From Candidatus Limnocylindria bacterium (lineage in GTDB: Bacteria > Chloroflexota > Limnocylindria > P2-11E), in the NCBI GenBank assembly GCA_035651155.1, contig DASRGG010000005.1, positions 74,503-138,502 of the forward strand: a stretch of DNA of 64,000 nt, read 5' to 3'. A model generated the notes under the pieces. It made no database searches and was not told where the DNA came from. It was given only the letters and a program-made list of their open reading frames with translations. Below are positions 4,866 to 23,799 of the stretch, one piece after another (position 1 is the first letter of the stretch; every line of letters starts with the position of its first letter). The translations under genes were made by a program, and so were the position numbers.

Positions 4866-7289
4866 TCACGACCGGCCTCCCGGGAGCGTGACGTAGAAGC
4901 CCTCGCGGCCACCCTGCCACGCGCGGCCCAAGAGATCGAACATCGGTTCGGATGCATCTGCTGGCTCGATGTGCGCGACGCCTCCGGGCTGCGCGAGGCC
5001 GTAGGCGAGCACCCCGCCAGCCCGGCTGACGTAGTAGACGAACCCGTTCTGGTCCATCGCGAAGCTCGTGATCGCGCGGCCGACGAGGCCAGCCGTCACG
5101 CTGAGGCCGCCCGTCTGAGCGGGGCGCAATGAGAACGTCTGGCCCGTGTCGGTCCCGACCCAAACCGTGCCCTGGCGGTCGACGGACAGGGCGGTGATCG
5201 AGCCGCCATGTGCGAGCGAGTACTCCGTGGTCTTCGCCGTCAGCGGGTCGTAGACGTCGATCGCCTGACGGTCACCGCCGGCGGTCCAGATGCGCCCGAG
5301 CGGATCGGACGCCACCGCCGCGAGTCCCAGGCCGACCGGGATGCGCTGGACCTGTCCGGTGCGCGGGTCGTAGCTCACGAGGCCGTCCGCGCCGGTCGCG
5401 AGCCAGAGCCGCTCGTCGGGGGAGGCCGTGATCGCCGACGCGTTCGTCGCGTAGGCCAGCGGGATCTTCACGTACTGCAACGTGCTGACCGTGAGCGCGT
5501 AGACCATGCTCGACGGACCGTCGACGAAGTACACGTGGTTCCGGCTGGCCGCCATGCTCGTGATCGTCGCGCCGGCGGGAAGCACCGCGAGCTGCAGCAG
5601 ATCGCCGTTCTGCATGTGCAGCGCGTTGACGCGGTTCGCGTTGTCGAGATACCAGATGCGCGTCCCGTCGCTCGCGACGCGCGTCGGTCGCTGCGACGGG
5701 GAGACGCTCACGAAGTAGGTGCCCGGCCACAGCGGCCGCGCGTTCAGCGGCACGAGGTCATCCTTCTCTTGGGGCGCGACCACGACCGCCGGCTGCGTCG
5801 CCGCGGGCGTCGGTGTCGCGGATGGACCAGGCGTCGTGATCGCGGTCGGCAGCGGTGTGGCTGTCGACGCCGGGTTTGGCGATGTCGCGGCGGCCGTCGT
5901 GAGCGAGGACGGCAACGGAACGTCCTTCACGTCGTTCGCGCCGATCACGGCGAACTTGCGCTCCGACGCGTCGTACGCGAGATCGCGGGCGTTCGCCGGC
6001 GCGTCGATGGTCGCCGCGGGGAGCCCATCTGACGTGAGGATCGTGATGACTCCCCTCCCGGCGAAGTCCGCCAGCACGGCGAACTGGCCGCCCGGGAGCG
6101 CCGCGACCGCGCGCGGCGTTCCGCCGATCGCGAGGCTGGCACCACCACGGCCGAAGGTGATCGTCGCGCCCGCGGCGCCGTTCGAGAGCACCACGTAGTT
6201 GTCGCCACCGATCGCGAACGCGGCGGCGACACCGCCGGGCGCGCTCGCGAGCGGTGCGTAGGTCGCGGCGTCCGCGAGGATGGACGACTTCGCGGAGACG
6301 AGGAGCGCACGCCGGCCGTTCGGCTCGATGACGATGATCTGCGGCGCGACGTCCACCTGGTGGACCGACTCGACCTGCTTGGTGCCGCCGTCGATCGTGG
6401 AGATGACGCCCGTGCCGGACGAGGCCGCGCCGGGCGTCGCGCTCGGACCGGGTCCGACGACCGAGGTCACGACGAGGTTGCCCTTGCCGTCGACCTGAAG
6501 GCTCGTCGGCGTGCCGGGAACGCTCACCGCGGTCGCGGCGGTGATCGCCATGCTCGAGCCGTCGATCTCGGTGACCGTCTTCGCCGTCGAGTCGAGCACG
6601 ATGACGGTGTTCGTCGTGAGGTTGATGGCGAGCGCGGTCGGCCGGCCGCCCACGTGGACGATCGCCTTCTGCGCGAGCGTCGTCAGGTCGAGCGCGGCGA
6701 CCGTCGCCTGATCGGGCTTCAGCACGTAGAGGGTGTTCGTGTACGGGTTGCGCACCGACTGCTGCGCGGCCGCCACGAGCGGCGTGTTCGGCGTTGCGGT
6801 CACCGTCGGCCCACCCTGCGGCAGGCTCAGGACGAGGATGAGCGAGATGGCCGTGACGACGGCGAGGGTCGGGAGCGGCCACGCGCTCACGAGGCGCGGC
6901 ACGCGCACGGTGCGCTCGCGGCCGAGGGCACCGATCGCGGCGTCGACGCGAGCCGACGGGATCGCCACGGGCATCGCCGCGAGCGTCCGGTCCACGGCGG
7001 ACCAGTCGCGGACGGCGGCGCGGCAGTCGCCGCACACGGCAAGGTGCGCGGAGGCCATCGCGGCCTCCTCCGGGCCGAGCTCCCGGTCGATGTTCGCGGA
7101 GAGAAATGCCTCTGCCGCGCCGCAGGAGAGCGCGGGCGAGGCGGCGACGTCCTCGTCGACGGCCGCAAAGAGGCGCAGCGCGCCCGCGCAGGAGGCGCAT
7201 TCGCCGAGGTGGGCCGCGGCGGAGGTGGCGTCGGAAGGCGTGAGCTCGCCGTCGAGGTAGGCGGACAGGAGGTCGTCGCTGAGGTGCAT
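4866..7289 (-). CDS. Anti-sigma factor: two tandem zinc-finger (ZAS, HxxxCxxC) motifs, one TM helix, extracytoplasmic beta-propeller domain
   Basis: The N-terminus carries LSAYLDGELTPSDATSAAAHLGECASC and a second copy LSANIDRELGPEEAAMASAHLAVCGDC, giving two HxxxCxxC motifs. TM segment WPLPTLAVVTAISLILVLSL. The C-terminal half has repeated YVTN/Vgb-lyase-like blades (LWLATGADGLVSYDPRTG, RIWTAGGDRQAIDVYDP, TVWVGTDTGQTFSL). Confidence 0.65.
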   Translation of the reverse strand: MHLSDDLLSAYLDGELTPSDATSAAAHLGECASCAGALRLFAAVDEDVAASPALSCGAAEAFLSANIDRELGPEEAAMASAHLAVCGDCRAAVRDWSAVDRTLAAMPVAIPSARVDAAIGALGRERTVRVPRLVSAWPLPTLAVVTAISLILVLSLPQGGPTVTATPNTPLVAAAQQSVRNPYTNTLYVLKPDQATVAALDLTTLAQKAIVHVGGRPTALAINLTTNTVIVLDSTAKTVTEIDGSSMAITAATAVSVPGTPTSLQVDGKGNLVVTSVVGPGPSATPGAASSGTGVISTIDGGTKQVESVHQVDVAPQIIVIEPNGRRALLVSAKSSILADAATYAPLASAPGGVAAAFAIGGDNYVVLSNGAAGATITFGRGGASLAIGGTPRAVAALPGGQFAVLADFAGRGVITILTSDGLPAATIDAPANARDLAYDASERKFAVIGANDVKDVPLPSSLTTAAATSPNPASTATPLPTAITTPGPSATPTPAATQPAVVVAPQEKDDLVPLNARPLWPGTYFVSVSPSQRPTRVASDGTRIWYLDNANRVNALHMQNGDLLQLAVLPAGATITSMAASRNHVYFVDGPSSMVYALTVSTLQYVKIPLAYATNASAITASPDERLWLATGADGLVSYDPRTGQVQRIPVGLGLAAVASDPLGRIWTAGGDRQAIDVYDPLTAKTTEYSLAHGGSITALSVDRQGTVWVGTDTGQTFSLRPAQTGGLSVTAGLVGRAITSFAMDQNGFVYYVSRAGGVLAYGLAQPGGVAHIEPADASEPMFDLLGRAWQGGREGFYVTLPGGRS

Positions 7290-7541
7290 GCCCTCCTATG
7301 ACGAGCGGGGCGGCGCCGTTGTCGCGCTCTCAGGCCACAGGCCCGTGAGGACCGTAGGGCGCCCGGGCGGCTCTCAGGGCGTCTTCAGGCCGCTTATGGC
7401 CTTGGGGTACAGGCCAGGCTGGACCCATCGGGCTTTCCCGGGGTGTACGCGGCCTCTGAACGCTGCACGGGCGCGCGATCGGGCTTCGGACGACTACCGC
7501 ACGGCGCCCCGGGGTCAGCCGTCGCGTGACAGACTGAACGC

Positions 7542-7892
7542 ATGATCGAGCAGGAGCAGCGGGCGCGTGAGATCCGCCGAGCGCGGCTCGAGGCGGCGCT
7601 TCCGAGCATGGTCGAGAGGCTGAAGCGGCTCGGCGCGCGACGGGTGATCCTGTTCGGCTCGCTGGCGCGTGGCGACGTCGGCAAGCGCAGCGACCTGGAC
7701 CTCATCGTGGTGCTCGACGCCGCACCGCCCCGCTTCCTCGACCGGCTCGCGCTCGTCGACGAGGCGCTGCGGGAGCGGGACGTTCCGCTCGACGTGCTCG
7801 TGTACACGACCTCGGAGCTGGCGGAGCTCTCGCGCACGCGTCCGTTCCTGCGTCGCGCGCTGCGCGAAGGACGCGTCCTGTATGAAGCCTGA
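7542..7892 (+). CDS. Minimal nucleotidyltransferase (MNT/MntA-like, Pol-beta superfamily), antitoxin of a HEPN/MNT module
   Basis: 116 aa with the motif GSLARGDVGKRSDLDLIVVLD (GS...D.D). Overlaps the downstream HEPN ORF by 11 nt. Confidence 0.7.
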   Translation: MIEQEQRAREIRRARLEAALPSMVERLKRLGARRVILFGSLARGDVGKRSDLDLIVVLDAAPPRFLDRLALVDEALRERDVPLDVLVYTTSELAELSRTRPFLRRALREGRVLYEA

Positions 7893-8109
7893 GGCGTCGG
7901 CCGAGGCCGGACGCTGGCTCGCGCAGGCCGAGCGCGACCTCGCCGCGGCACGCGATCTCGAGCGGGCGGGCCACTTCAACGTCGCGTGCTTTCAGGCACA
8001 GCAGGCAGCGGAGAAGGCGGCGACTCACCCAGACGGTGCGCGACGCCGGTCATCAACGGGGACGATCTCGCTGACCTGGCGGACTCGACTGAGGGCAGGG
8101 AGGCTCTAA
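7882..8109 (+). pseudogene. HEPN-domain fragment (N-terminal about 47 aa HEPN-like, C-terminus degenerate or truncated)
   Basis: MKPEASAEAGRWLAQAERDLAAARDLERAGHFNVACFQAQQAAEKA matches the HEPN N-terminal helix pair. Downstream sequence (ATHPDGARRRSS...) does not continue a HEPN fold in any frame, and the C-terminal Rx4-6H motif region is absent. The ORF ends 3 nt inside the convergent sigma-factor gene. Confidence 0.45.
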
Positions 8110-8720
8110 CCCGCCGGTCCTCGAGTTCCGTAGGCCGCCTTGAAGGCGGCCCGCGCCCGGGCGATGCGGCTCCGGACCGCGGTCATGGTCACGCCCTGGA
8201 TGTCGGCGATCTCCTTGTACGAGTAGCCCTCGAGGGCGTGGAGGAGGAGCGCCACGGCGTTCTCCGGCGGAAGGGTGCGCAGCACCGCCTGGACGTGCTC
8301 GCGCTCGCCGACCTCGCCCACCGCGTCCGCGGCGTGCGGTTCGATGGGCGTGTGCTGGACCTGGGTCATGCGGATCCAGGTGAAGCGCCTGCGGCGACGG
8401 AGGTGGTCGATCGCGCAGTTGCTCGCGACGCGGTAGAGCCAGGGCAGGACCTTGGTCCCGCGCTCGAGCTTCGGCAGCGCGTGGAACGCCTTGGTGAAGA
8501 CCTCCTGCGTGACGTCGTCCGCGAGCTCGGCGTCGGAGAGGAAGCGCAGGAGGAACGTGTAGATGCGCGACTTGTACGCGCCGTAGAGCGCGTCGAGCCC
8601 GTCGCGCTGCGATTCCGCCGCGAGTGCCAGGAGCTGCGCGTCCGAGATCACCCCGTGCTCCACGACAGCGACCTTGGCCGGGTCAGCCGAACGGAGCGAC
8701 GCGAACGCGAACACCGGCAC
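8106..8720 (-). CDS. ECF-type RNA polymerase sigma-70 family sigma factor
   Basis: Region 2 (DALYGAYKSRIYTFLLRFLSDAELADDVTQEVFTKAF) and region 4 (LLHALEGYSYKEIADIQGVTMTAVRSRIARAR) are clear. Only 9 nt downstream of the preceding gene in the same orientation. Confidence 0.8.
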   Translation of the reverse strand: MPVFAFASLRSADPAKVAVVEHGVISDAQLLALAAESQRDGLDALYGAYKSRIYTFLLRFLSDAELADDVTQEVFTKAFHALPKLERGTKVLPWLYRVASNCAIDHLRRRRRFTWIRMTQVQHTPIEPHAADAVGEVGEREHVQAVLRTLPPENAVALLLHALEGYSYKEIADIQGVTMTAVRSRIARARAAFKAAYGTRGPAG

Positions 8721-8729
8721 AGGGGGACT

Positions 8730-9209
8730 TTACTGTGCGAGGACCAGGTTGAGAACCTGATCTTGCGTCGGCTGGAGGCGCTTCACGACCTCCTTGAAAC
8801 CGTCCTTGGTGAAGTGGAGGTCGTACGCGACCTGCGCCTGCGGGAAGTCGATGTAGTACACGCCGCGCGCGTCGGTGCGCGGGCTGTGCTCCTGACAGCC
8901 GTTGGGGCCGATGGCGATGCAGACGCCCGGGATCGGCGCTCCCAGCTCGTCGACGACGACACCCTCGATCCGGTACTGGGTACCGGGGTTCCGCCCGGGG
9001 GTGGCCGTCGCCGGCTTCTGCGTCGGCGGGATCGGGATGGTGTTGCCCTGCGGCGTGATCGCGATGAGCGGCGACGCGTTCGGGTCCGGGATCGCCGTGG
9101 TGTTCTCGGTCGCGCGGTATCCCCATACCAGCACGGCCGCCGCGATGAGGAGCGGGACACCGAGCGCGAGGAGCGTCCAGGTGCCCCGATCCTTCCAGTC
9201 GATCTTCAC
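8730..9209 (-). CDS. Small membrane-anchored protein with carboxypeptidase-regulatory-like (CarboxypepD_reg) beta-sandwich domain
   Basis: N-terminal TM anchor WTLLALGVPLLIAAAVLVWGY. C-terminal YRIEGVVVDELGAPIPGVCIAIG...DARGVYYIDFP resembles a CarboxypepD_reg fold. Tightly packed between the repeat protein and the sigma factor. Confidence 0.5.
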   Translation of the reverse strand: MKIDWKDRGTWTLLALGVPLLIAAAVLVWGYRATENTTAIPDPNASPLIAITPQGNTIPIPPTQKPATATPGRNPGTQYRIEGVVVDELGAPIPGVCIAIGPNGCQEHSPRTDARGVYYIDFPQAQVAYDLHFTKDGFKEVVKRLQPTQDQVLNLVLAQ

Positions 9210-9221
9210 GCGGTCTCCCTG

Positions 9222-10997
9222 CTAGGGGGCGGTGAACCCCTCGTAGATCATCGCGTTGTCGCCGCCGGAAGCCAGCTCGACGACGATGCCGTTGATGGAC
9301 CCGGTGCCGCCGTCGGCCACCACCGAGTATTGCGTGTCGTCGGAGAGGGCGCTCACGTCGCGCGGGTCGACGCGGATCGCCGAGCCCGGCGTGATGGGGA
9401 GGGTCTGCGTGGTCACGAGAGCGCCGTCGCTGAAGCGGTACCACGAGAGCGTGACGCTCACCGCGGACGAGGACTGGATGATGAGCGGCGTCGTCCATCC
9501 GGCCGCGCCGCCGAGCCTGCGCGTCACGTTCGGCAGGAAGCTCTTCCCGGCGACGGTCGGCGTCGCGGAGTAGGCCATCGCGGTCGCCTCGCTGTTCACG
9601 TTCACCTGCCCGGCGAGGCTCGCCCCCGGCGCGGAGACGACGAACGAGTAGTCGCCGTCCGGGAGGCAGCCGCCGATCGCGCTCGACGCGCAGAAGGGCT
9701 GCGTGGTGTCGCCGTTCGCGTACCGCACGTCGAAGACCTTGGAGGCGCCCGGCCGGATCGCGCCGAGCGCGTACGTGCGCGCCGTCCCGCCGCCGTGCGG
9801 CGTGAACGCGATCGTCGGCGACGCGGCGCTCGTGCCCAGGTTCTGGACCACGACGGTCGCCGACCGCGATATGCCGTCCGTGTTCTTCGGCGCGTAGGCG
9901 CCGAAGAGCGTAGCGCCGCCGACCACCACGCCGCCGGTGCTCCCGGCCTTCGGATGGACCTGCCACGGCTGGTCGTCCTGCGTGTTCACGACGACGGCGA
10001 GGGGCTGCGACGCGGTGACGGTGACCGCGTACTGCGTGCCGTCCACGAGGCCCGGCTCGACGTTCGGATCGATGAACTGCGAGCGGCCGGCGTCGATGGT
10101 GCGGATCGACGTGACGGTCGGCGCCGTGCCGTCGAAGGAGACGAACCGCGCGGTCGCGGTGGTCGCGACGGCGCCGAGGTTCTGGATGACGAACGGCGTG
10201 TCGAAGCCGAAGAAGCGCCGCGTGATGTTCGGCAGGAACACGCTCGTCGCGCCCGCCGCCGCGCCGACGTACGACATGGCCTCGGCCTCGTCGCCGCTGC
10301 CCTGGTGCTCGTTCACGACGGACACGACGGTCGAGCCGTAGCTGCGCACGACGACCGCGAACTGCGAGTCGCCGGGCAGGTAGGTGTCGTTGTTGGGCAC
10401 GTCCGCGTAGGAGGTGCCGGGCGCGAGGCTCGGCACGACGCGGCAGGTCACGAGCGACCCGTCGGAGAACCGGTAGAAGGAGATCTCCAGACGCGTCGCG
10501 GCGGTGCCGGTGTTCTGCACGATGAACGGCGTGTACCAGCCGCCCGGTCCGCCGAGCGTCTTCGTGACGTTCGGGAGGTAGACGGTGCGCGTCGGCGTGC
10601 CGCCGGTGCATGGCTGCGCGGGCACCTGGCCCGGCTTCAGCATCGGGGCGTCCTGCCTGGTCGCGCCGTGCACGACGAACTGCGGCGAGTCGTATTCCTG
10701 GTAGACGCCGCTCTGGTCGAGGAATTCGAGCTGCTGCGCCGCGGTGACGAGGTCGTTCGGCGGGAAGTCGATGCGATACGTGCCGTCGGCGGCGGTGCGC
10801 GTGAAGCACGTGAGCTTCACCGGGCCGAGGATCACGCAGATGTTGGCGAGCGGAGCACCGGTGGAGGCGTCGAACGCGATCCCGTAGATGTAGCTGTCGA
10901 ACGCGGCCGCCTGCCCGCCCGACAGCCCGAGTGACGCGATGACGAACGCGAGGACGACGGACAGCCTGACGGCACGGACGACACGTGTGGGGTCCAT
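9222..10997 (-). CDS. Secreted protein: N-terminal CarboxypepD_reg-like domain followed by four copies of an uncharacterised ~110-aa repeat (LPNVT[KR]..GG..GW.TP.I[IV]QN)
   Basis: Signal peptide VVLAFVIASLGLSGGQAAAF. The CarbPepD-like segment is IYGIAFDASTGAPLANICVILG...ADGTYRIDFP. Four internal repeats begin YLPNVTKTLGGPGGWYTPFIVQNTG, FLPNITRRFFGFDTPFVIQNLG, (degenerate) ATVVVQNLG, FLPNVTRRLGGAAGWTTPLIIQS. Confidence 0.55.
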   Translation of the reverse strand: MDPTRVVRAVRLSVVLAFVIASLGLSGGQAAAFDSYIYGIAFDASTGAPLANICVILGPVKLTCFTRTAADGTYRIDFPPNDLVTAAQQLEFLDQSGVYQEYDSPQFVVHGATRQDAPMLKPGQVPAQPCTGGTPTRTVYLPNVTKTLGGPGGWYTPFIVQNTGTAATRLEISFYRFSDGSLVTCRVVPSLAPGTSYADVPNNDTYLPGDSQFAVVVRSYGSTVVSVVNEHQGSGDEAEAMSYVGAAAGATSVFLPNITRRFFGFDTPFVIQNLGAVATTATARFVSFDGTAPTVTSIRTIDAGRSQFIDPNVEPGLVDGTQYAVTVTASQPLAVVVNTQDDQPWQVHPKAGSTGGVVVGGATLFGAYAPKNTDGISRSATVVVQNLGTSAASPTIAFTPHGGGTARTYALGAIRPGASKVFDVRYANGDTTQPFCASSAIGGCLPDGDYSFVVSAPGASLAGQVNVNSEATAMAYSATPTVAGKSFLPNVTRRLGGAAGWTTPLIIQSSSAVSVTLSWYRFSDGALVTTQTLPITPGSAIRVDPRDVSALSDDTQYSVVADGGTGSINGIVVELASGGDNAMIYEGFTAP

Positions 10998-11093
10998 GTC
11001 GTGACTAACGACGCAGGTGCCATTTCAGTTTCGTCGGCGGCGACCGCGTGGTGTACGAGCCTCGGGCCTTCGCGAGCTGGGCGCCTCGCTCGT

Positions 11094-11123
11094 TGTACGT
11101 CTACATGTACGTTCAGATGTACG
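11094..11123. promoter_or_regulatory. Three TGTACG hexamers at 12-nt spacing (with a fourth at about 11052) in a divergent intergenic region
   Basis: tTGTACGtctacaTGTACGttcagaTGTACGATG. The last hexamer abuts the ATG at 11124. The region lies between the minus-strand repeat-protein/sigma operon start (10997) and the plus-strand RelE/ParE ORF. Candidate operator. Confidence 0.3.
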
Positions 11124-11507
11124 ATGGCGGCGCTCCTCGCGCGCGACCGGCGCGACGCCGGTGAGACGTCGCGCCCGCTCGCGGAGCTGATCGCCGAGCG
11201 TCGCGGTGCCCGCCCGAAGCGTCGCACGCCGCGACGCGCGCATGCCGCGTATCGCGTCCACGTCCAGCGATCGGCGGAGCGCGATCTCGAGCTCCTCGCG
11301 CCCGCGCTCTTCGATCGGATCGCGAGACGGCTCGTCGCGCTCGGCGCGGTTCCGCGGCCGTCAGGAGCGGAGAAGCTCGTCGCGATCGAGGCCTATCGCC
11401 TTCGTGCGGGCGACGACCGCGTCGTGTACGAGGTCAACGACCGCACGCGCGTCGTGATCGTCACGCGGATCCGGCATCGCCGGGAGGTCTACCGGAGGCT
11501 GCGCTGA
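11124..11507 (+). CDS. RelE/ParE-family type II toxin domain protein with about 40-aa N-terminal extension
   Basis: The C-terminal 85 aa (YRVHVQRSAERDLELL...LVAIEAYRLRAGDDRVVYEVNDRTRVVIVTRIRHRREVY) matches the RelE/ParE consensus (RLRvGdyRviYev.d..v.V.ri.HRreiY). No intact upstream antitoxin ORF found. Confidence 0.55.
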   Translation: MAALLARDRRDAGETSRPLAELIAERRGARPKRRTPRRAHAAYRVHVQRSAERDLELLAPALFDRIARRLVALGAVPRPSGAEKLVAIEAYRLRAGDDRVVYEVNDRTRVVIVTRIRHRREVYRRLR

Positions 11508-11753
11508 ACGATCGCAAGGACGAAGACGTCGGAGCGCTCGAGGCGGGGGGCACGCGCGCCTTGACGATCAGTCGGCGCTGATCCGGCGCGCGATCGACCG
11601 CGAATACCTCGGACGGGCTCGGTGATCGAAGGCGGATCGTTTGCGCGCCATCCGCAGCGCCGCGGGAGCGTAGCGGGGGCGGACCGAGACCGGTGCGGAC
11701 TACGTCGAGCGCATGCGTTCCGGGCGGCTCGCGCGCCTTTGCGCGCGCGCGCG

Positions 11754-12143
11754 ATGAGGTACGCGATCGATACGTCGGTCCTGATCGACGTCCTGCGCGA
11801 GTACCGGCCTGCCGTCGAGCTCCTCGAGCGGCTGGCGGAGCAAGAGGCTCAGCTGGTGAGCTCGTACGTCGTTCGCACCGAGGTGCTCAGCGGGATGCGT
11901 CGCGGTGAAGAGCGCGGCACGCGCGCGCTCCTGGAGCTCGTGGAATGGCTGCCTGTGGGGGAGCCGGAATCCGAAGCCGCGGGAGCGTTGGGGCGGAGGT
12001 GCGCCGGGGCGAACCAAGGGCTCGACACCCCCGACCTGCTGCTCGCGGAGGTCGCCGAACGTCAGGGTGCCGAGCTGCTCACGACGAACGTCAAGCGCTT
12101 CCGCGAGATCTTTCCAGGCATCCGCGCGCCGTACCCGTACTAG
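11754..12143 (+). CDS. vapC: PIN-domain ribonuclease (VapC-like toxin), apparently without intact cognate antitoxin
   Basis: MRYAIDTSVLIDVLRE... carries the N-terminal PIN acidic motif, and ...LLTTNVKRF is the C-terminal PIN signature. The upstream 240 nt contains only frameshifted antitoxin-like fragments (..ALIRRAIDREYLG). Confidence 0.65.
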   Translation: MRYAIDTSVLIDVLREYRPAVELLERLAEQEAQLVSSYVVRTEVLSGMRRGEERGTRALLELVEWLPVGEPESEAAGALGRRCAGANQGLDTPDLLLAEVAERQGAELLTTNVKRFREIFPGIRAPYPY

Positions 12144-12178: not shown

Positions 12179-13303
12179 CTACCGCAGGGGGAGGCGCTCG
12201 ATCGCGCGCAGCGCGGAGAGGCCGTCGCCGATGCCGCCGATGAGATACGCGTCCGACCCGGTGACCACCAGATCGCCGAGAGCCCGCGCGATGGACGGGC
12301 TGGCGAACTCCGACCACGCGTTCGTCGCGGGATCCCAGATCTCCGCGCCCGCGACCGGGACCCAGTCCTGACGATCCGGGAGCTGGCGCGATCCGCCGGT
12401 GATGAGCACGCGGCCGTCCGGGAGCGCCGCGGCCTGCTCGATGAGACGCGGCTCCACCAGCGCGCCCGCGTAGGTGAACACGCCGCGCGCGGCGTCGTAG
12501 CGCTCGGCGGTGTTCGCCGCGGCCTGCTGCCCGCCGATGATGAGCACGTCGCCGTCGCGCAGCGCGACCATCGCGTGCTGCACGCGCGGGACGGACATGT
12601 CGGGACCGGGCGTCCAGAGGTCCTTCGCGGGGTCGTAGATCACCGAGCTCTTCATCGGCGCGCCGATCTTCGAGAGGCCGCCGGCGACGAGCACGCGCCC
12701 GTCGCGCAGCGGCGCGATCGAGAAGCGCACGCGCGGCTCGGGCAGCGGCGCGGCCTCGGTCCAGCGATCGGCCTTCGGGTCGTACAGCTCGCTCGACGCG
12801 AGCGGCACGGTGCCGAAGTTCCCGCCGGTGACGAGCACCCGCCCGTCGCGGAGCGCGGCCGCGCCGTGATCGCTGCGCGCCTGCAGGAGCGGCGCCGCGC
12901 GGCGCCAGCGGTGCTCGAACGGGAGGTACACGTCGACGCGGTCCGACGAGTGGAACGCCTTCGCGTACCACTCCACGCCGCCGGCGATGACGAGGCGATC
13001 GCCGCCGACCTGGGTCATGGTGTGGTGGAGGCGCCCGGGGAGCGGCTGCTCGAGCACCCGGAGCGTGTCCGTGAGCGGATCGATGAGCTCGGTCGCGGGA
13101 TTCACGACGCCGGGATCGTTCTCGTCGAGCCCGCCGAACACGAAGATCTCACCGGTGGGAAGGAGCGTCGCGCTCGCGTACGCGCGCGGGCGCGCGAGCT
13201 GCGCCATGGTGGTCCACCCGGCGTCCTTGAAGCCCTGCGGCGCGCTCGCCCCCACCAGTACGGCGACGGCGAGCGGCACGACGAGCGTGCCGACCCACCT
13301 CAT
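12179..13303 (-). CDS. Kelch-repeat (galactose-oxidase-like) beta-propeller protein, secreted
   Basis: 374 aa. Signal peptide MRWVGTLVVPLAVAVLVGASA. Six repeats of the Kelch signature (...GGxx...G....ELYDP....W; e.g. VLVTGGNFGTVPLASSELYDPKADRWTEAAPLP). The start ATG overlaps the stop of the upstream amidase (caATGAgg). Confidence 0.75.
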   Translation of the reverse strand: MRWVGTLVVPLAVAVLVGASAPQGFKDAGWTTMAQLARPRAYASATLLPTGEIFVFGGLDENDPGVVNPATELIDPLTDTLRVLEQPLPGRLHHTMTQVGGDRLVIAGGVEWYAKAFHSSDRVDVYLPFEHRWRRAAPLLQARSDHGAAALRDGRVLVTGGNFGTVPLASSELYDPKADRWTEAAPLPEPRVRFSIAPLRDGRVLVAGGLSKIGAPMKSSVIYDPAKDLWTPGPDMSVPRVQHAMVALRDGDVLIIGGQQAAANTAERYDAARGVFTYAGALVEPRLIEQAAALPDGRVLITGGSRQLPDRQDWVPVAGAEIWDPATNAWSEFASPSIARALGDLVVTGSDAYLIGGIGDGLSALRAIERLPLR

Positions 13304-16300
13304 TGCACTTGGAGGGTAGCCGAGCCTCCGGGCACGCCTTGACCCGAGAACCAGGTGACGCCTTCCTGCACGAGGTCGAACGTGAGCGTGTACGTGCCCG
13401 CGGTCGCGGGCGCCTTCACCGTCGCCACGAGGGCGATGCTCTGACCCGGCTGCACGTCGGTCGGCAGCGCGGTGCGCGCGCCGTCCCACACGTACAAGAG
13501 GCCGGCCGCCGTCGAGAGGTGGTAGGCGAGGTTCACCTGCGACGCGCGCAGCCACGGCATCGCGCCGGTGTTCGTGAGCGTGACGCCCACGTTCGCCGTT
13601 CCCGCGACCGGGGCGCTGATCGGGTTCCCCGCGACCACGTACGTCGCGCCGTAGCTCGGCACGACCGCGGTGAACGTCCTCTGCGGCGTCTGCATGCCGT
13701 TGCCGGAGAACCACGCGACGCCCTCCTGCACGAGGTCGTAGCGGATCGTGTACGTCCCCGCGGTCGCCGGCACGCCCACCTTCACGGCGACGGTGCGGAG
13801 CTCGTTCACCTTCATCCCCGCGAGGCTCGTGCGCAGGCCGTCCCACACGACGGTGTTCCCGGACGCGTCGTAGAGGTGGTAGCTGAGGTTGACGCTCGCG
13901 CCCCAGTCGAAGTTCGAGAGGTTCTGCACCTTCACGTTGAAGGTCGCGGGCATCGCGGTCGGCAGCGTCGCCGGCGTAGCGGAGACGTCCAGCGATCCGC
14001 CGTAGAAGAGGTTCGCGGTCGAGCCGACCTGCACCGGCTGGTCGAAGGTGCGCACGTCCTTGCCGCTGAACCACGCCACGCCCTCTTCGACCATGTCCCA
14101 GCGCAGCGTGTACGTGCCGGTGCCGGTCGGGAACACCAGCGACGCCTGGAGGCTCGCGGAGGCGCCCGGCGCGACGTCGGCGGGCAGGCTCGTGCGCAGG
14201 CCGTCCCAGACGACCGTGCGGCCGGCGCTGTCGCTCCAGTGGTACGAGAGGTGGATCGGGTTCGCGCCGCCCGCGGACCACGCGAAGCTGCTCGTGTTCG
14301 TCACGGTGATCGGCACGCTCGCCGCGCTGCCCGAGACCGCGAGGGTCTGCACCGCGGGCTGGTAGCTCGCGCCGTACGTCTTCACCAGCGGGCCCGCGAC
14401 CGGCGTCGAGAGGGTGCCGGTGGCGACGCCCTTGGACGAGAACCACGCGACGCCTTCCTGCACGAGGTCGAAGCGCAGCTGGTACTGGCCGCCCTGCGGC
14501 GGCGCGGTGACCTGCGCCTGCAGCGTGACGGACTGGCCGGGGGCGAGGTCGGCGCCGAGCTTGGTGCGCGCGCCGTCCCACACCGCGGCCACGCCCGCGG
14601 CGGTGTACCAGTGGTAGCCGAGGGTGACCGGGTACGAGCTCGTCGTCGGGAACACGCCGCGCCCGGTGTTCGTGACCGTGACGGGCACGGTCGCGGTCTG
14701 GCCCGCGCTGAAGGTGGGCTGACCCTGGACCTGGTACGCGGCCTTGAAGTCGAGCGAGACGCCCGTGGGCGTGTCGTCGGGCGCGACGCCCTTGTCCGAG
14801 AACGCGAACTCGTTCTCCTTGTAAAGGTCGAGGTAGTTCGTGTACTGCGTCGGATAGGTCGGCGCGGTCATCGGGAACGTGAGCGTCACCGACTGGCCGG
14901 GCTGCACGTCGGCGGGGAGCGCCACGCGCGTCGCGCCCGGGAAGGTGTTGCCGGTCGCGTTGGAGACCCACTTGTAGCCGAGGCGCACGGGGTTCGCGCC
15001 GCCCGCGGGCCACACGCGGCCGCCGTCGTTCTGCACGGTGACGGTGATCTGCTTCGTCTCGCCCGCGACCCACGCGATCGGCACGTTGTCCTTGACCCAG
15101 TCCGCGCTCCAGTCGGCCGAGTTGAACCACTGGTCGCGCACCGGCGTGCCCTTCAGCGTGTTCCACCACTGCGTGCCGGTCTGGAGATCCCAGCGCACGA
15201 TGTACGACCCGATCGCGGGCACGCTGAACGCGACGTTCACCGTCGCGGCCTGGCCCGGCGCGAGCGGCGCGGGGATCGGCGCGAGGGGGCCCTGCGCCTG
15301 GACGACCGCGCCCTTCGAGAGGATGCGGTACGAGACGTTCGTGCCCGCGGGGATCGCGGTCTGCCCCCTGTTCGTCACGGTGACCGGCACGCTCACGACC
15401 GCGCCGGGGAACCCGGCCTTCGGGAGCTGCGGATCGATGTAGGGCATGTCGAAGTAGCCGGCGTTCACCGCGTTCTGCGCGAGGCGGCGCAGCCCGTCGA
15501 TCATGTTGTAGATCCCGTTGCCGGGGCAGGCGGTCTGCCCGCCGTGCTGCGAGAGGATGTAGTTGCAGTCGCGGTGGCCCTGCACGTTGGGCGGGTTGCT
15601 CGTGATGTTCACCCAGCTCCCGTCGGGCGCCTGCTCCTGGTGCGTGAACGTGTCGTTGCCGTAGGGCTGGATCCCGAGCTGGGTCGCCTTGATCGCGACG
15701 ATGTTCGCGATCGCGCCCTGCAGCGCGCTCGTCGGCTGCGCGATGGAGTAGTCGCCCAGGGCGGCGATGCCGATGGAGCCGTTGTTCCAGCCGTACGCGT
15801 GACCGGCGATGACGTTGTCGCCACCCTGCCGGCCCGTCCAGATGTTGCCGAACTTGTCGACGAGGTAGTTGTAGCCGATGTCGCCCCAGCCGCGCGTGAC
15901 CGCGTGGTAGTAGTAGATCGCGCGGATCGTCGCCGCGACGTTGTTGCCGCCGTCGTCGGTGACGGTGTGGTGGATGACGAACTTCTGCGCCTTCTGATAG
16001 CGCGGCGGCCACTGCATGAGGTTCTCGTCCGCCGCCCAGTCCTGCCGCGTGAGGATGCGCGACGAGCCCACCGGCGCCGCGTCGGCGTAGCTCCGTGTGA
16101 AGTCGCTGAACGCGCCGGCCACGTCGTTCAGCAGGCGCGCGAGCGGGCCGGCGTTCAGGTCGCTCACGTCCATGAACGTGAGGTTCACGCGCGCGATCGC
16201 GTCGGGGTCGCCGCTCGTGAGCCACACGCGGTACTGCGCGTAGCGCGCGGCTGTTTGCGCGACCGGCACGGGCGCGGCGAAGTGCTCGTTGCTGAGCTCG

Positions 16301-16761
16301 TCGGTCATGTCCTCTTCTTCGTTCATCTGGCGCCAGCCGCTCCACAGGGCGCCGTCGCTGGAGGTGCGCGCCTCGACGAAGATCGTGTCCTGGGCGCCGG
16401 GCGCCGCGATCCAGTGGATGCCGAGCCGGTCGAAGACCTGGCCCGCGTCGATGACCTCGGATGAATAGAGGAGCGTCGCGCCGCCGGTGCTGCCCGCGTC
16501 GGCCGCGCTGATCCGCGCGCCGCTCGGAAGAGAGAGCGCGCCCGCCGCGCCCCGGGCCGGGTGCGACCGGGAGACCTCGCTCGCGACGATCCGGCCGCTG
16601 GCACGCGGGGAGGCGACCGCCGGCGTGCCGAAGTTGGGGAGGAGGGCGAGCACGAGCGCGCCGATGAAGAGCGCTATCCGAAGGCGCGCGTGGCGTCGGC
16701 CCAACCGGACCTCCTTCTTCCTCTGCCACGCTTCCCCGACGCCGAAGCTGGATTCTGACAT
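13300..16761 (-). CDS. Secreted N-acetylmuramoyl-L-alanine amidase (Amidase_2/PGRP domain) with about 7 tandem four-tryptophan (FW/NBR1-like) Ig-like repeats
   Basis: The catalytic domain is FVIHHTVTDDGGNNVAATIRAIYYYHAVTRGWGDIGYNYLVDKFGNIWTGRQGG...AGHAYGWNNGSIGIAALGDY. C-terminal repeats of about 110 aa follow the pattern TVTNTG...W..GGANP[VI].LSYHW.D..G..VVWDG.RT.LP.DVAPG.S.TL...P...GTYTLR.DLVQEGVAWFS. Signal peptide present. Confidence 0.8.
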   Translation of the reverse strand: MSESSFGVGEAWQRKKEVRLGRRHARLRIALFIGALVLALLPNFGTPAVASPRASGRIVASEVSRSHPARGAAGALSLPSGARISAADAGSTGGATLLYSSEVIDAGQVFDRLGIHWIAAPGAQDTIFVEARTSSDGALWSGWRQMNEEEDMTDELSNEHFAAPVPVAQTAARYAQYRVWLTSGDPDAIARVNLTFMDVSDLNAGPLARLLNDVAGAFSDFTRSYADAAPVGSSRILTRQDWAADENLMQWPPRYQKAQKFVIHHTVTDDGGNNVAATIRAIYYYHAVTRGWGDIGYNYLVDKFGNIWTGRQGGDNVIAGHAYGWNNGSIGIAALGDYSIAQPTSALQGAIANIVAIKATQLGIQPYGNDTFTHQEQAPDGSWVNITSNPPNVQGHRDCNYILSQHGGQTACPGNGIYNMIDGLRRLAQNAVNAGYFDMPYIDPQLPKAGFPGAVVSVPVTVTNRGQTAIPAGTNVSYRILSKGAVVQAQGPLAPIPAPLAPGQAATVNVAFSVPAIGSYIVRWDLQTGTQWWNTLKGTPVRDQWFNSADWSADWVKDNVPIAWVAGETKQITVTVQNDGGRVWPAGGANPVRLGYKWVSNATGNTFPGATRVALPADVQPGQSVTLTFPMTAPTYPTQYTNYLDLYKENEFAFSDKGVAPDDTPTGVSLDFKAAYQVQGQPTFSAGQTATVPVTVTNTGRGVFPTTSSYPVTLGYHWYTAAGVAAVWDGARTKLGADLAPGQSVTLQAQVTAPPQGGQYQLRFDLVQEGVAWFSSKGVATGTLSTPVAGPLVKTYGASYQPAVQTLAVSGSAASVPITVTNTSSFAWSAGGANPIHLSYHWSDSAGRTVVWDGLRTSLPADVAPGASASLQASLVFPTGTGTYTLRWDMVEEGVAWFSGKDVRTFDQPVQVGSTANLFYGGSLDVSATPATLPTAMPATFNVKVQNLSNFDWGASVNLSYHLYDASGNTVVWDGLRTSLAGMKVNELRTVAVKVGVPATAGTYTIRYDLVQEGVAWFSGNGMQTPQRTFTAVVPSYGATYVVAGNPISAPVAGTANVGVTLTNTGAMPWLRASQVNLAYHLSTAAGLLYVWDGARTALPTDVQPGQSIALVATVKAPATAGTYTLTFDLVQEGVTWFSGQGVPGGSATLQVQ

Positions 16762-21084: not shown

Positions 21085-23799
21085 TCATGGGACGAAGGTC
21101 ACCGGGCGCGTCGCGCCCGCCCCGAACCAGCGGACACCTTCCGACACCAGATCGATCGTCGCCGACGCGGCGCCCGCGGGCACGGGGCCGAGCGCGACGG
21201 AGAGCGCGATCGTCTCGCCGGGCGCGACGTCGCGCGGCAGCGCGGTCCGCGGGCCGTCCCACACGAGGACGTTGCCGGCGGCGTCGTACCAGTGCACCGA
21301 CGCGCGCACCGGGGCGGGCCCGCCGGCGGTCCAGAGCGCGCTCGTGACGTTCGTGACCGTGGTCTGCGCGACCGGCGCCGCGCGCGACACCGACAGCGGA
21401 CCGGTCGGCAGCCGCGCGCGGTAGTCGGCGACGACGAGCAGCGGCACGTCGCCGGTCGCGATGCCGAGGCCGCTGAACCACGCGACGCCCTCGCGGACCA
21501 GGTCCACGCGCGCGCGATACGCGCCCGGCGCGAGCGGCGCGTCGACCGCGACCTGGTAGCTGCCCGACGCGCCCGGCGCGACGTCCGCGGCGAGCGCGGT
21601 GCGGGCGCCGTCCCAGAGGACGACGTTCCCGCTCGCGTCGACGACGTGCGCGGCGAGGCGCACGGGGTTCGCGCCGGCCGCGGGCCACGCGAGGATGCCG
21701 TCGTTGCGGACGCCGACCGTCACACTGGCGCGCTCGCCGGGAAGGAGCGTCGCGATCGCGCCCGGCGTGTACGAGGCCGCGAAGCCCGAGGTCACCGAGT
21801 AGGTGATGTCGCGCGTGGGAACGCCCTCGCCGCTGAACCACGACACGCCTTCCTGGACGAGGTCGAGCCGCAGCGTGTACGTGCCGAGATCGGCGGGCGC
21901 GCTGACCGGCAGCTGCACGGTAACGGTCTGCCCGGGTTGGACGTCGGCCGTGAATGGGGCCCGCGCCCCGTCCCAGAGCACGGTCGTGCCCCCGCGCAGC
22001 CAGTGGTAGGAGAGGCGGACCGGGTTCGCGCCGGCCGCGGCCCAGGATCGGGTCCCGGTGTTCACGAGCGTCACCGCGAGCGCCGTCGCGGGCGCGCCGC
22101 TGACGAGCGTCGCGCTGGTGGCGGTCGTCGCGTACGACGCGCCGAGGCCCGACCCGACCGCGACGGCGACGTCCGCGGGTGCCACGCCGTACGCGGAGAA
22201 CCAGCCGATGCCCTCGCGCACGAGGTCGAAGCGCAGCGTGTACGCGCCGCGCGTCGGCGGCGCGAGCACGGTCGCCGTGGTCGTGACGGTGGCGCCGGGC
22301 TGCACGTCGCTCGGCAGCGTCGCGCGGACGCCGTCCCAGACGACGACGTTGCCGTTCGCGTCGAGCCAGTGGTACGAGAGGTGGACGGGGTTCGTGCCGC
22401 CGGCGGCCCAGATGCCGGGCGACGTGTTCGTCAGCGTGACCTTCGCGCTGAAGAGGTCGCCGGAGGTCACCGAGCGCGCCACCGCGCTCGTGTCGTACCT
22501 CGCGCCGAAGGGCGGCAGCGTCGCGGTCACCGCGCGCAGCGCGTTGAGGCGCCCCGCCCCGTACGCGACGTCGGGGCCCGGCGGACCGAGGTCGTCGGCG
22601 GTGGACTCGAGGCGCTGCAGGACCTGCGTCGCGGTGAGGCTCGGGTCCATTCCCAGGAGGAGCGCGGCGAGGCCGGTCGCGAAGGGCGTCGCCTGCGAGG
22701 TGCCGGAGAACGCGGCGTAGCTCATCGAGCCGCCGCGGTCCGATTGGTACGTCGGGTAGTGCGGCGTCGTGCTCACGATGCGGACGCCCGGCGCCGACAC
22801 GCCGACCTGCGGGCCCTGCGTGGAGAACGGCGCGATCGTGTCGTCGGTGGAGGTCGCGCCGACCGCGAGCACGCCGGGATAGCCGGCCGGGTACTCGACG
22901 AGGTTCCGCGTGTTGAGGCAGCGCGTCGACGCGACGCCGCAGTTGCCCGCGGCGGCGATGATGAGCACGTTGCGCTGGATCGCGTACTGCACGGCCGACT
23001 GGAGCGTGCCGCTGTCGCTCGACGAGCCGAGGCTGATGTTGACCGCGCGCGCGCCGTGATCGACCGCGTACACGATCGCCTGCGCGATGTCCGAGATCGA
23101 TCCGCTGCCGGTGCAGTCGAGCGCCTTGATCGGAAGGATGCGCGCGTTCGGCGCGATGCCGACGATGCCGATCCCGTTGTTCGCGTCCGCGGCGATGACC
23201 CCGGCGACGTGCGTGCCGTGTGAGTTGTCGTCCGTGCCGGCCGTGTCGGCGTTGCAGCCCGTCGCCTGCGCCGACAGGATCGTCGTCCCCGGAAGGACGA
23301 CGCCCGCGAGGTCGGGGTGGCCGGCGTCGACGCCGGTATCGATGACGGCGACGGTCGTCGGCGTGGTCGCGGTCACGAGGTCGCGCGCGCGATCGAGGAG
23401 GATCTTCCTCGCGCCCCACTGGCCGAGGCCGACGTACGGGTCGGTCGTCCAGAGCGGATCGTTCGGCGTGAAGTCGAGGTGCACGCGCGCGTCGTTCTCG
23501 ACCCGCAGGACGCCGGGCCGCGCGGCCAGCGCCGCGAGGAGGACGGCGCCGTCGGCGCCGCGCTCGAGCGGCGCCGCGATGCGGGTCACGCCGATGCCGC
23601 GGAGCTCGACCTCCACGACGCCGCCCACCGCGGCCGCGGCGGCGGCATGGTCGGCGTCGGTCGTCCCGGCCGCGAACTGGACGAGGACGCGAACGGTCTC
23701 CGCCGGCACGGACGCCGCCCGAGCGGGCGACGGGCCGGCCGCCAGCATCGCGGCGACGACCAGGGCGATGCCGACCCGGCCGAGGGCGCTTCCGTGCAC
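21085..23799 (-). CDS. Secreted subtilisin-like S8 serine protease with 4 C-terminal FW/NBR1-like repeats
   Basis: Signal peptide and pro-region. Catalytic triad motifs VAVIDTGVD (Asp), HGTHVAGV (His) and GTSQATP (Ser). These are followed by 4 repeats (VTLTNTSPGIWAAGGTNPVHLSYHWLDANGNVVVWDGVRATLPSDVQPG... and similar). Confidence 0.8.
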   Translation of the reverse strand: MHGSALGRVGIALVVAAMLAAGPSPARAASVPAETVRVLVQFAAGTTDADHAAAAAAVGGVVEVELRGIGVTRIAAPLERGADGAVLLAALAARPGVLRVENDARVHLDFTPNDPLWTTDPYVGLGQWGARKILLDRARDLVTATTPTTVAVIDTGVDAGHPDLAGVVLPGTTILSAQATGCNADTAGTDDNSHGTHVAGVIAADANNGIGIVGIAPNARILPIKALDCTGSGSISDIAQAIVYAVDHGARAVNISLGSSSDSGTLQSAVQYAIQRNVLIIAAAGNCGVASTRCLNTRNLVEYPAGYPGVLAVGATSTDDTIAPFSTQGPQVGVSAPGVRIVSTTPHYPTYQSDRGGSMSYAAFSGTSQATPFATGLAALLLGMDPSLTATQVLQRLESTADDLGPPGPDVAYGAGRLNALRAVTATLPPFGARYDTSAVARSVTSGDLFSAKVTLTNTSPGIWAAGGTNPVHLSYHWLDANGNVVVWDGVRATLPSDVQPGATVTTTATVLAPPTRGAYTLRFDLVREGIGWFSAYGVAPADVAVAVGSGLGASYATTATSATLVSGAPATALAVTLVNTGTRSWAAAGANPVRLSYHWLRGGTTVLWDGARAPFTADVQPGQTVTVQLPVSAPADLGTYTLRLDLVQEGVSWFSGEGVPTRDITYSVTSGFAASYTPGAIATLLPGERASVTVGVRNDGILAWPAAGANPVRLAAHVVDASGNVVLWDGARTALAADVAPGASGSYQVAVDAPLAPGAYRARVDLVREGVAWFSGLGIATGDVPLLVVADYRARLPTGPLSVSRAAPVAQTTVTNVTSALWTAGGPAPVRASVHWYDAAGNVLVWDGPRTALPRDVAPGETIALSVALGPVPAGAASATIDLVSEGVRWFGAGATRPVTFVP

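Follow-up and report, generated by a model that had tools for sequence, protein, structure and literature searches.

A secreted protein of four predicted ASRAH domains heads an ECF sigma factor operon in Candidatus Limnocylindria

Introduction

Limnocylindria (formerly Ellin6529) are abundant, uncultured Chloroflexota of soil and freshwater, and to our knowledge essentially nothing is known of their envelope biology. In a 64,000-nt stretch of one such genome (Candidatus Limnocylindria bacterium, GenBank assembly GCA_035651155.1, contig DASRGG010000005.1, positions 74,503 to 138,502; hereafter the window), a minus-strand gene for a repeat-containing secreted protein stands immediately before the genes for a small membrane protein and an extracytoplasmic function (ECF) sigma factor. 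What are its repeats, and what might tie such a protein to a sigma factor? A first-pass annotation of the letters and their open reading frames (ORFs) had recognised the repeats without being able to assign them to a known family. Here we report that they are, by structural modelling, ASRT/TM1070-fold (ASRAH) domains, that they form a unit of fixed order (hereafter the tetrad) recurring in thousands of proteins, and that the protein built from them is encoded, at a conserved position, by the first gene of an ECF sigma operon.

The ASRAH superfamily was defined computationally by de Souza, Iyer and Aravind (Biol Direct 2009; PMC2739507), who distinguished three families. The first comprises stand-alone ASRT-like proteins of the cytoplasm; in family 2, described from Roseiflexus, Chloroflexus and Herpetosiphon, secreted proteins join four ASRAH domains to an N-acetylmuramoyl-L-alanine amidase; and the third consists of actinobacterial lipoproteins with two ASRAH domains, in whose gene neighbourhood an inactive zincin-like peptidase is conserved. 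According to the same work, TM1070 is a tetramer with cleft walls that the dimer interface helps to form, secreted versions always come in pairs or sets of four, and the hallmarks of the domain are a strand-1 Trp after a polar residue and a near-invariant Asn that ends strand 2. Sugars or, in the amidase family, peptidoglycan were predicted as ligands, and a role in small-molecule sensing via protein-protein contacts was proposed for ASRT-type proteins (PMC2739507).

Results

An exported protein with four homologous repeats

The ATG of the tetrad protein gene is the first possible start codon past an in-frame stop at about position 11025, and the N-terminus that it specifies is of Sec type, with a charged n-region, a hydrophobic helix at residues 2-24 and then AAA-F. 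An AlphaFold2 (AF2) model of the full-length protein, made from an alignment of 61 homologues, places a helix at the same residues; its local confidence score (pLDDT) falls below 50 at residues 25-31 and is 89.6 for the whole model, with a predicted TM-score (pTM) of 0.78. Behind the signal peptide, Foldseek matched the N-terminal domain to the transthyretin-like domain of carboxypeptidase D (5aq0_B; TM-score 0.77, probability 1.0), and many homologues carry the CarboxypepD_reg family PF13620. Two cysteines of this domain, C53 and C63, are invariant, and both are kept in the extracytoplasmic part of the membrane protein encoded by the next gene, to which the domain is paralogous (BLASTP 3e-8). 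We conclude that the protein, from a soil or freshwater bacterium of Candidatus Limnocylindria (Chloroflexota), is Sec-exported and extracytoplasmic.

Cutting the protein at its recurring [FY]LPN motif and comparing the pieces by BLASTP revealed four homologous repeats, R1-R4, of 108-122 residues, in agreement with the first-pass description of a secreted protein with four copies of a ~110-residue unit. R1 and R4 are the closest pair (E 2e-23), followed by R2-R4 (9e-11) and R1-R2 (3e-10); R3 is the divergent copy (R1-R3, 1e-4; R2-R3, 1e-3; R3-R4, 0.2), lacks LPNVT and contains an inserted loop with two invariant cysteines, C435 and C443. A repeat profile drawn from the window protein and its homologues, 20 proteins in all, found exactly four stretches in the ORF and no further match in the six-frame translation of the window. 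The conserved start motif proposed for the repeats, [FY]LPN[VI]T[KR]..GG..GW.TP[FL]I[IV]QN, stands in full in R1 and R4, but is shortened in R2 and degenerate in R3. The LPN[VI]T[KR] segment of R1, R2 and R4 holds an invariant N-x-T (residues 142-144, 256-258 and 489-491), which has the form of an N-glycosylation sequon and may be simply structural.

Structural models assign the repeats to the ASRAH superfamily

The AF2 model of a single repeat, made from 57 aligned repeats, has eight strands and a pLDDT of 91.2. Comparison of this model with the PDB by Foldseek gave 19 matches at E <= 1e-3 among the 50 matches listed, every one of them to 1NC7 or 2II7-2IIA: TM1070 (1NC7) was matched at E 8e-7 with TM-scores of 0.72-0.75 and ASRT at E 2e-4, and, again among those 50, only TM1070 and ASRT reached a TM-score of at least 0.6, the matches that followed lying below 0.5. 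The single repeat was needed for a clean result, the full-length model giving mostly long, poor multi-Ig alignments (macroglobulins, TM-score 0.1). In sequence, the ASRT strand-2 signature SHETVCILN aligns onto WYTPFIVQN of the repeat, a position that reads W-[YQT]-T-P-[FL]-I-[VI]-Q-[NS] across the repeats, and the Asn that ends it (N161 in R1, N272 in R2 and N385 in R3, each aligned with the ASRT Asn) is invariant or nearly so among the 61 homologues. Strand 1 begins with Y139, F253, F364 and F486 and not with the ASRAH Trp; the hhalign alignment begins only at strand 2. Run on genuine ASRT proteins, the repeat profile scored at most 14.5 bits, in register over ~80 positions (per-comparison E 1.8e-6, 120 targets).

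A metagenomic protein links the families in sequence. P0251 (JGI metagenome, 1,198 residues) has eight repeats by the repeat profile, that is, two tetrads; its fourth repeat (residues 360-443) is matched by the profile at 3.8e-13 and by Pfam ASRT at 1.3e-12 (residues 370-440), and its repeats 1-2 are covered by DUF5719 at 7e-17. The same protein carries a DUF11 domain and ends in ...LFLPLVVR, and, being matched by Pfam ASRT, DUF5719 and the repeat profile alike, is a useful bridge toward a proper family model. Among the isolated repeats, DUF5719 matched one of 57, at 0.0044, and the tetrad protein itself had no above-threshold match to it.

The TM1070 fold, the strand-2 Asn and the count of four make the tetrad protein a member of the ASRAH superfamily, and we regard its repeats, on the strength of these models, as eight-stranded beta-sandwiches of the ASRT/TM1070 fold. 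Because they lack the ligand-contacting His and Cys and the protein lacks an amidase domain, it falls outside the Pfam ASRT family and, as that family was defined, outside the amidase-fused one. The repeat is thus assignable after all, contrary to the first-pass annotation, through the single-repeat structure search and the sequence bridge of P0251; nor was it previously unrecognised, secreted tetrads of Chloroflexi having been described in 2009 (PMC2739507).

Profile searches were less informative. NCBIfam gave no match to the tetrad protein, PDB-sequence profile searches with the full-length and single-repeat alignments gave nothing significant (we discarded as chance the best match, a phage tail tube protein at E 0.015), and Pfam returned only a marginal, partial match to CARDB (PF07705) and none to PF07100. 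The CARDB match scores 24.7 bits (cut-off 22.7) on residues 160-217 of R1 only, spanning profile positions 27-83 of 101; on the isolated repeat it drops to 15.9 bits, just five of the 57 repeats reach E <= 1, and no CARDB structure occurs among the 50 PDB matches listed for the single repeat. We therefore rejected CARDB as the identity of the repeat, and neither it nor DUF11, the common domains that the first-pass annotation had in mind, maps cleanly onto it.

A large family with a fixed repeat order and many partners

The tetrad protein has more than 1,000 homologue matches, at up to 82% identity and almost all unnamed; those with names are nearly all from Candidatus Limnocylindria or Chloroflexota metagenome-assembled genomes (MAGs). 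Cluster names say no more than "hypothetical" or "TIGR01451 repeat protein". A search of other genomes for the motif, as the first-pass annotation had proposed, was made with two motif peptides and yielded 116 confirmed loci, several per MAG. Searching 1.84 billion representatives (clusters at 50% identity) with the repeat profile in HMMER recovered 2,438 proteins at E <= 1e-3, 1,063 of them at E <= 1e-10. Exactly four stretches were found in 100 of the 149 best representatives, and those with fewer were mostly short and probably fragments. Among these 100, the repeat at each ordinal position best matched the window repeat of the same number in 89, 68, 60 and 65 cases (positions 1 to 4), a fixed order that marks the tetrad as an old unit and not a variable array.

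The tetrad stands alone, or at the N- or C-terminal end of larger proteins, where its partners include Big_1, Big_2, CarboxypepD_reg, PKD, Peptidase_S8, Peptidase_MA_2, a GH39-like domain, beta-lactamase, CAP, NAGPA and multihaem cytochromes. With the Amidase_2 domain of the window as query, no such domain was found in any of 398 proteins compared, ~269 of them of the tetrad family. In the full-length model, the last strand of a repeat and the opening strand of its successor lie only ~5 residues apart; together with the pTM and the fixed count, these short links suggest that the modelled tetrad packs compactly, and we read it as a possible covalently linked imitation of the TM1070/ASRT homotetramer.

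Two multihaem cytochromes (Cytochrome_C7, paired CXXCH), P0240 (VVB92647.1, labelled 'uncultured archaeon') and P0266, carry the tetrad at their C-terminus, following a CarboxypepD_reg domain, and the archaeal label on one of them indicates that the tetrad is not confined to Chloroflexota. P0039 (963 residues) and P0040 (943 residues), whose tetrads are 68% identical to that of the window protein, have C-terminal Big_2 and a weak match to the zincin-like Peptidase_MA_2; with the zincin-like neighbour of the actinobacterial lipoproteins described in 2009, this may be a recurring partnership. Homologues 50-56% identical to the window protein (L035, L060, L047, L017, L049 and L069) come from MAGs labelled Bathyarchaeia, Acidimicrobiia, Thermoleophilaceae, Actinomycetes and Ilumatobacteraceae. 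Their contigs are short (2-6 kb), the gene order of L047 is that of the Limnocylindria loci, and these sequences are probably mis-binned.

The tetrad gene heads a conserved ECF sigma operon

Gaps of 12 nt between the tetrad gene and the membrane protein gene and of 9 nt between the latter and the sigma gene, both as first reported for this locus, leave the three genes tightly packed (Table 1), with GGGAG ahead of the GTG at 9209 that starts the membrane protein. A scan of positions 7200..11700 for sigma-70 promoters and intrinsic terminators found none, including between the three genes. From the short gaps and the lack of any sigma-70-like promoter or terminator-like site between the genes, we conclude that all three are very likely co-transcribed.

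The same arrangement recurs in relatives, in the order amidase, Kelch, tetrad, small CarboxypepD_reg membrane protein, ECF sigma and anti-sigma, free of toxin-antitoxin insertions, with 69-144 nt between Kelch and tetrad genes and 4-18 nt between sigma and anti-sigma genes. Loci counted as informative if their sequence extended at least 2.5 kb downstream (for sigma) or at least 3.5 kb upstream (for amidase). For homologues with the N-terminal domain, sigma lay downstream in 19 of 26 loci and amidase upstream in 14 of 20; for tetrad-only paralogues the counts were 1 of 25 and 0 of 21. These data, with the absence of a terminator-like site, bear out the placement of the tetrad gene as the first of the sigma operon. 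The amidase, which shares a polypeptide with the tetrad in the 2009 family, is encoded here by a conserved neighbouring gene, and this provides independent contextual support for a link to peptidoglycan.

In the window itself, the minus-strand order before the tetrad gene is Peptidase_S8, a 901-residue protein, Amidase_2 and Kelch, and the ParE-like and VapC genes look like a toxin-antitoxin insertion that severs the tetrad gene from these upstream envelope genes. Beyond the anti-sigma gene lie genes for a Big_1/invasin-like protein and a Wzy_C/TPR protein. The anti-sigma has two successive zf-HC2 or anti-sigma N-terminal motifs (residues 6-35 and ~54-91) ahead of its transmembrane segment, and a beta-propeller ectodomain of ~640 residues with Reg_prop and YVTN-like matches. 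Of the two genes between sigma and anti-sigma, the HEPN ORF appears truncated, since its profile match is confined to positions 3-39 of 117 and it overlaps the 3' end of the sigma gene. The Amidase_2 and Peptidase_S8 proteins share NBR1-like Ig repeats (PF16158, 5e-26 and 5e-9), a second module reused by the envelope enzymes of the cluster and distinct from the ASRAH tetrad.

A putative ECF-type promoter precedes the operon

Autoregulated ECF sigma/anti-sigma operons of the RpoE, SigW and SigE type have AAC-N16-17-CGT promoters. Upstream of the tetrad ATG we found CGAAAC-N17-CGTTAG, a putative ECF-type promoter that ends 7 nt from the start codon; no Shine-Dalgarno sequence is present, and the mRNA is, for these two reasons, probably leaderless. 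A relaxed -35/N16-17/CGTTA pattern had this single match on both strands of the window (128 kb of strand scanned). Moreover, of 21 orthologous upstream regions, 19 contain CGTT[AC], where 0.43 occurrences would be expected per 150 nt, and the position of the element follows the type of start: it adjoins the ATG if there is no Shine-Dalgarno sequence and lies 35-57 nt upstream if GGAGG is present.

The signal emerged only once the search was anchored on CGTT[AC]; few sites matched a strict regular expression of GGAAC type, and a de novo paired 4-mer search of 23 upstream regions returned GC-rich noise only. We saw no correctly spaced ECF-type pair in the stretch ahead of the anti-sigma gene (7290..7541). 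Judged from sequence, positive autoregulation by the ECF sigma is plausible, as the first-pass annotation had ventured.

Table 1. Features of the tetrad locus, in window coordinates
Feature	Position	Strand	Basis
Tetrad protein gene, 591 aa	9222..10997	-	ORF: signal peptide, CarboxypepD_reg-like domain, four ASRAH repeats
Signal peptide, aa 1-31 (MDPTRVVRAVR / hydrophobic helix / GGQAAA-F)	10905..10997	-	Read from sequence and AF2 model
Transthyretin-like / CarboxypepD_reg-like N-domain, aa 33-118	10644..10901	-	Foldseek; PF13620 in homologues
Repeat R1, aa 137-250, predicted ASRAH domain, YLPNVTK...GGPGGWYTPFIVQN	10248..10589	-	BLASTP, profile, model
Repeat R2, aa 251-361, FLPNITRRFFGFDTPFVIQN	9915..10247	-	BLASTP, profile
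Repeat R3, aa 362-483, divergent copy	9549..9914	-	BLASTP, profile
Repeat R4, aa 484-591, FLPNVTRRLGGAAGWTTPLIIQS, strand-2 Asn to Ser	9225..9548	-	BLASTP, profile
Putative ECF-type promoter CGAAAC-N17-CGTTAG (-35, 11033..11028; -10, 11010..11005)	11005..11033	-	Motif inference
Second gene: single-pass membrane protein, 159 aa, extracytoplasmic CarboxypepD_reg domain	8730..9209	-	PF13620 1.3e-10
Third gene: ECF sigma factor, 204 aa	8106..8720	-	Sigma70_r2 9e-18, r4_2 2e-15; TIGR02937 79.8 bits (cut-off 42.9)
Cognate anti-sigma, 807 aa, duplicated zf-HC2, one transmembrane segment, beta-propeller ectodomain	4866..7289	-	zf-HC2 1e-15 (two stretches), Reg_prop
MNT nucleotidyltransferase and truncated HEPN genes, between sigma and anti-sigma	7542..8109	+	NTP_transf_2 3e-11, HEPN 5e-10
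ParE-like toxin gene	11001..11507	+	PF05016 5.7e-6, aa 89-164
VapC/PIN toxin gene	11622..12143	+	PF01850 1.8e-13
Kelch beta-propeller protein	12179..13321	-	Pfam
Amidase_2 protein, 1,153 aa, NBR1-like Ig repeats	13300..16761	-	Pfam
Peptidase_S8 protein	21085..23799	-	Pfam

Discussion

Taken as a whole, the locus is best explained, in our judgement and with moderate confidence, by an exported ASRAH tetrad that binds envelope carbohydrate and belongs to an ECF-autoregulated operon. Behind its signal peptide, the protein would consist of a transthyretin-like (CarboxypepD_reg) domain with a predicted disulfide, followed by four ASRAH domains that form a fixed, compact unit mimicking the TM1070/ASRT homotetramer, in which the ligand clefts sit at subunit interfaces. 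By analogy and context, the tetrad may bind a carbohydrate of the cell envelope, most likely peptidoglycan or an element of a wall glycan, and such binding would hold the protein at the wall. An extracellular binding role is suggested, likewise by analogy, by the signal peptide, the Cys pairs, the fusions to enzyme and adhesion domains and the Amidase_2 neighbour. The ECF-type promoter would drive the tetrad gene, the membrane CarboxypepD_reg gene and the sigma gene together; release of sigma by the anti-sigma would then raise all three products, a positive autoregulation.

Several observations weigh against this explanation. At the level of the fold, Pfam ASRT (PF07100) has no direct match on the tetrad protein or on any of the 57 repeats, and hhalign relates repeat and ASRT weakly (E 0.0074, probability 5%). 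In the repeats, Y/Q and I stand in place of the ligand-contacting His and Cys of TM1070, so that the TM1070 ligand is not transferable to the tetrad, and we know of no secreted ASRAH domain with an experimentally demonstrated ligand. The proposed pseudo-tetramer packing is drawn from the pTM and the domain counts. At the level of regulation, the -35 element varies in relatives, being of AAC type in close and of CGTATA type in distant ones; a loose [AG]AC-N16-18-CGTT pattern also matches coding controls (7 of 22 and 3 of 22), for which reason we rely on the CGTTA form and its position; and the anti-sigma gene no longer adjoins the sigma gene in this genome, the two being 816 nt apart.

Could the tetrad protein be a part of the sensor and not an output of the sigma factor? 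It would then bind a wall-derived glycan or muropeptide and signal to the beta-propeller of the anti-sigma, perhaps via the membrane CarboxypepD_reg protein. Tight linkage of the tetrad, membrane protein, sigma and anti-sigma genes across relatives, the paralogy of the N-terminal domain and the membrane protein ectodomain, and the sensor role proposed for ASRT-type proteins (PMC2739507) are all consistent with this; however, the paralogous tetrads are mostly unlinked to sigma and are fused to enzymes, which fits a targeting module better than a dedicated sensor. We consider the sensor role unlikely. A bolder proposal, to which we give somewhat less credence, is that the tetrad has, in Limnocylindria and related Chloroflexota, a part comparable to that of SLH, LysM or CWB2 domains in other monoderms, as the main module for targeting the cell wall, and would bring peptidases, glycosidases, cytochromes and adhesins to one particular wall glycan, with the enzyme-less copy of the sigma operon serving as a soluble co-sensor of that glycan for the anti-sigma.

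It is improbable, in turn, that the tetrad gene is transcribed independently, that its adjacency to sigma is mere neighbourhood and that CGTTA is a housekeeping or chance element. Seven of the 26 homologues of the N-domain type lie in other contexts, and the poor conservation of the -35 and the coding-control matches would also fit; yet promoters or terminators could not be fitted into gaps of 12 and 9 nt, and the CGTTA motif is unique in the strand scanned and keeps a consistent distance from the start. Least probable of all is a generic beads-on-a-string adhesin of ordinary CARDB/Ig-like domains, which is favoured by the above-cut-off Pfam score, by precomputed PF07705 matches in a few homologues and by weak matches of the full-length model to multi-Ig macroglobulins and pilins, but is contradicted by a match confined to one repeat and to 57 of the 101 profile positions, by an eight-stranded repeat whose only close structural matches, among the 50 listed, are TM1070 and ASRT, and by a fixed count of four and a pTM that speak against a variable string of beads.

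The ECF-linked, exported tetrad that we favour can be set beside four known systems. With ASRT/TM1070 (PF07100; 2II7-2IIA, 1NC7) it shares the eight-stranded fold, the strand-2 Asn motif in register and the unit of four, formed there by a homotetramer and here by tandem domains; but those proteins are cytoplasmic, single-domain, ~125 residues long and marked by SHExxCxxN, whereas the tetrad protein is secreted, holds four diverged domains in one chain and adds LPN[VI]T[KR]..GG..GW, and is missed by the Pfam ASRT model. Like ASRAH family 2, it belongs to Chloroflexota, is secreted, has four tandem domains with predicted binding to peptidoglycan or wall sugars and is functionally linked to an amidase; unlike family 2, it has no amidase domain, the amidase being a separate gene two positions upstream, and its CarboxypepD_reg-like partner domain and ECF sigma operon set it apart from the 2009 description. 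DUF5719 (PF18986), which we infer to be the actinobacterial two-ASRAH cell-surface lipoprotein of that description, is likewise a secreted multi-ASRAH protein in a cell-envelope gene context, and matches to it occur in four of 48 fusion proteins; unlike the tetrad protein, it is a domain pair that bears a lipobox and has extensions of its own at the N- and C-terminal ends, and is linked to WhiB and a glycosyltransferase. As in autoregulated ECF operons, finally, there is an ECF sigma, a zf-HC2 membrane anti-sigma and an AAC...CGTT promoter before the sigma-containing operon; unlike those of the RpoE, SigW and SigE type, this operon has two genes for extracytoplasmic proteins before sigma, and in this genome an opposite-strand toxin-antitoxin remnant has separated the anti-sigma gene from it.

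The superfamily and the secreted tetrads of Chloroflexi were already known from the computational work of 2009 (PMC2739507). Our search of the literature found the name ASRAH only in that paper, no papers on DUF5719, and nothing specific on ECF factors combined with CarboxypepD_reg. What is new is, firstly, a very large tetrad family that Pfam and NCBIfam miss, so that its members are labelled merely "hypothetical"; secondly, the fixed R1-R4 order and the wide range of fusions with different extracellular enzymes; and thirdly, the architecture of CarboxypepD_reg and tetrad with no amidase, together with the conserved position of its gene as the first in an ECF sigma operon.

Thousands of proteins thereby gain a predicted fold and a testable sugar-binding hypothesis. 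Where the 2009 description comprised amidase fusions only, the tetrad family now appears as a promiscuous extracellular module that is also tied to an ECF signalling operon. As a putative natural single-chain version of the ASRT/TM1070 tetramer, it could help to settle the ligand question of the fold, including that of ASRT itself.

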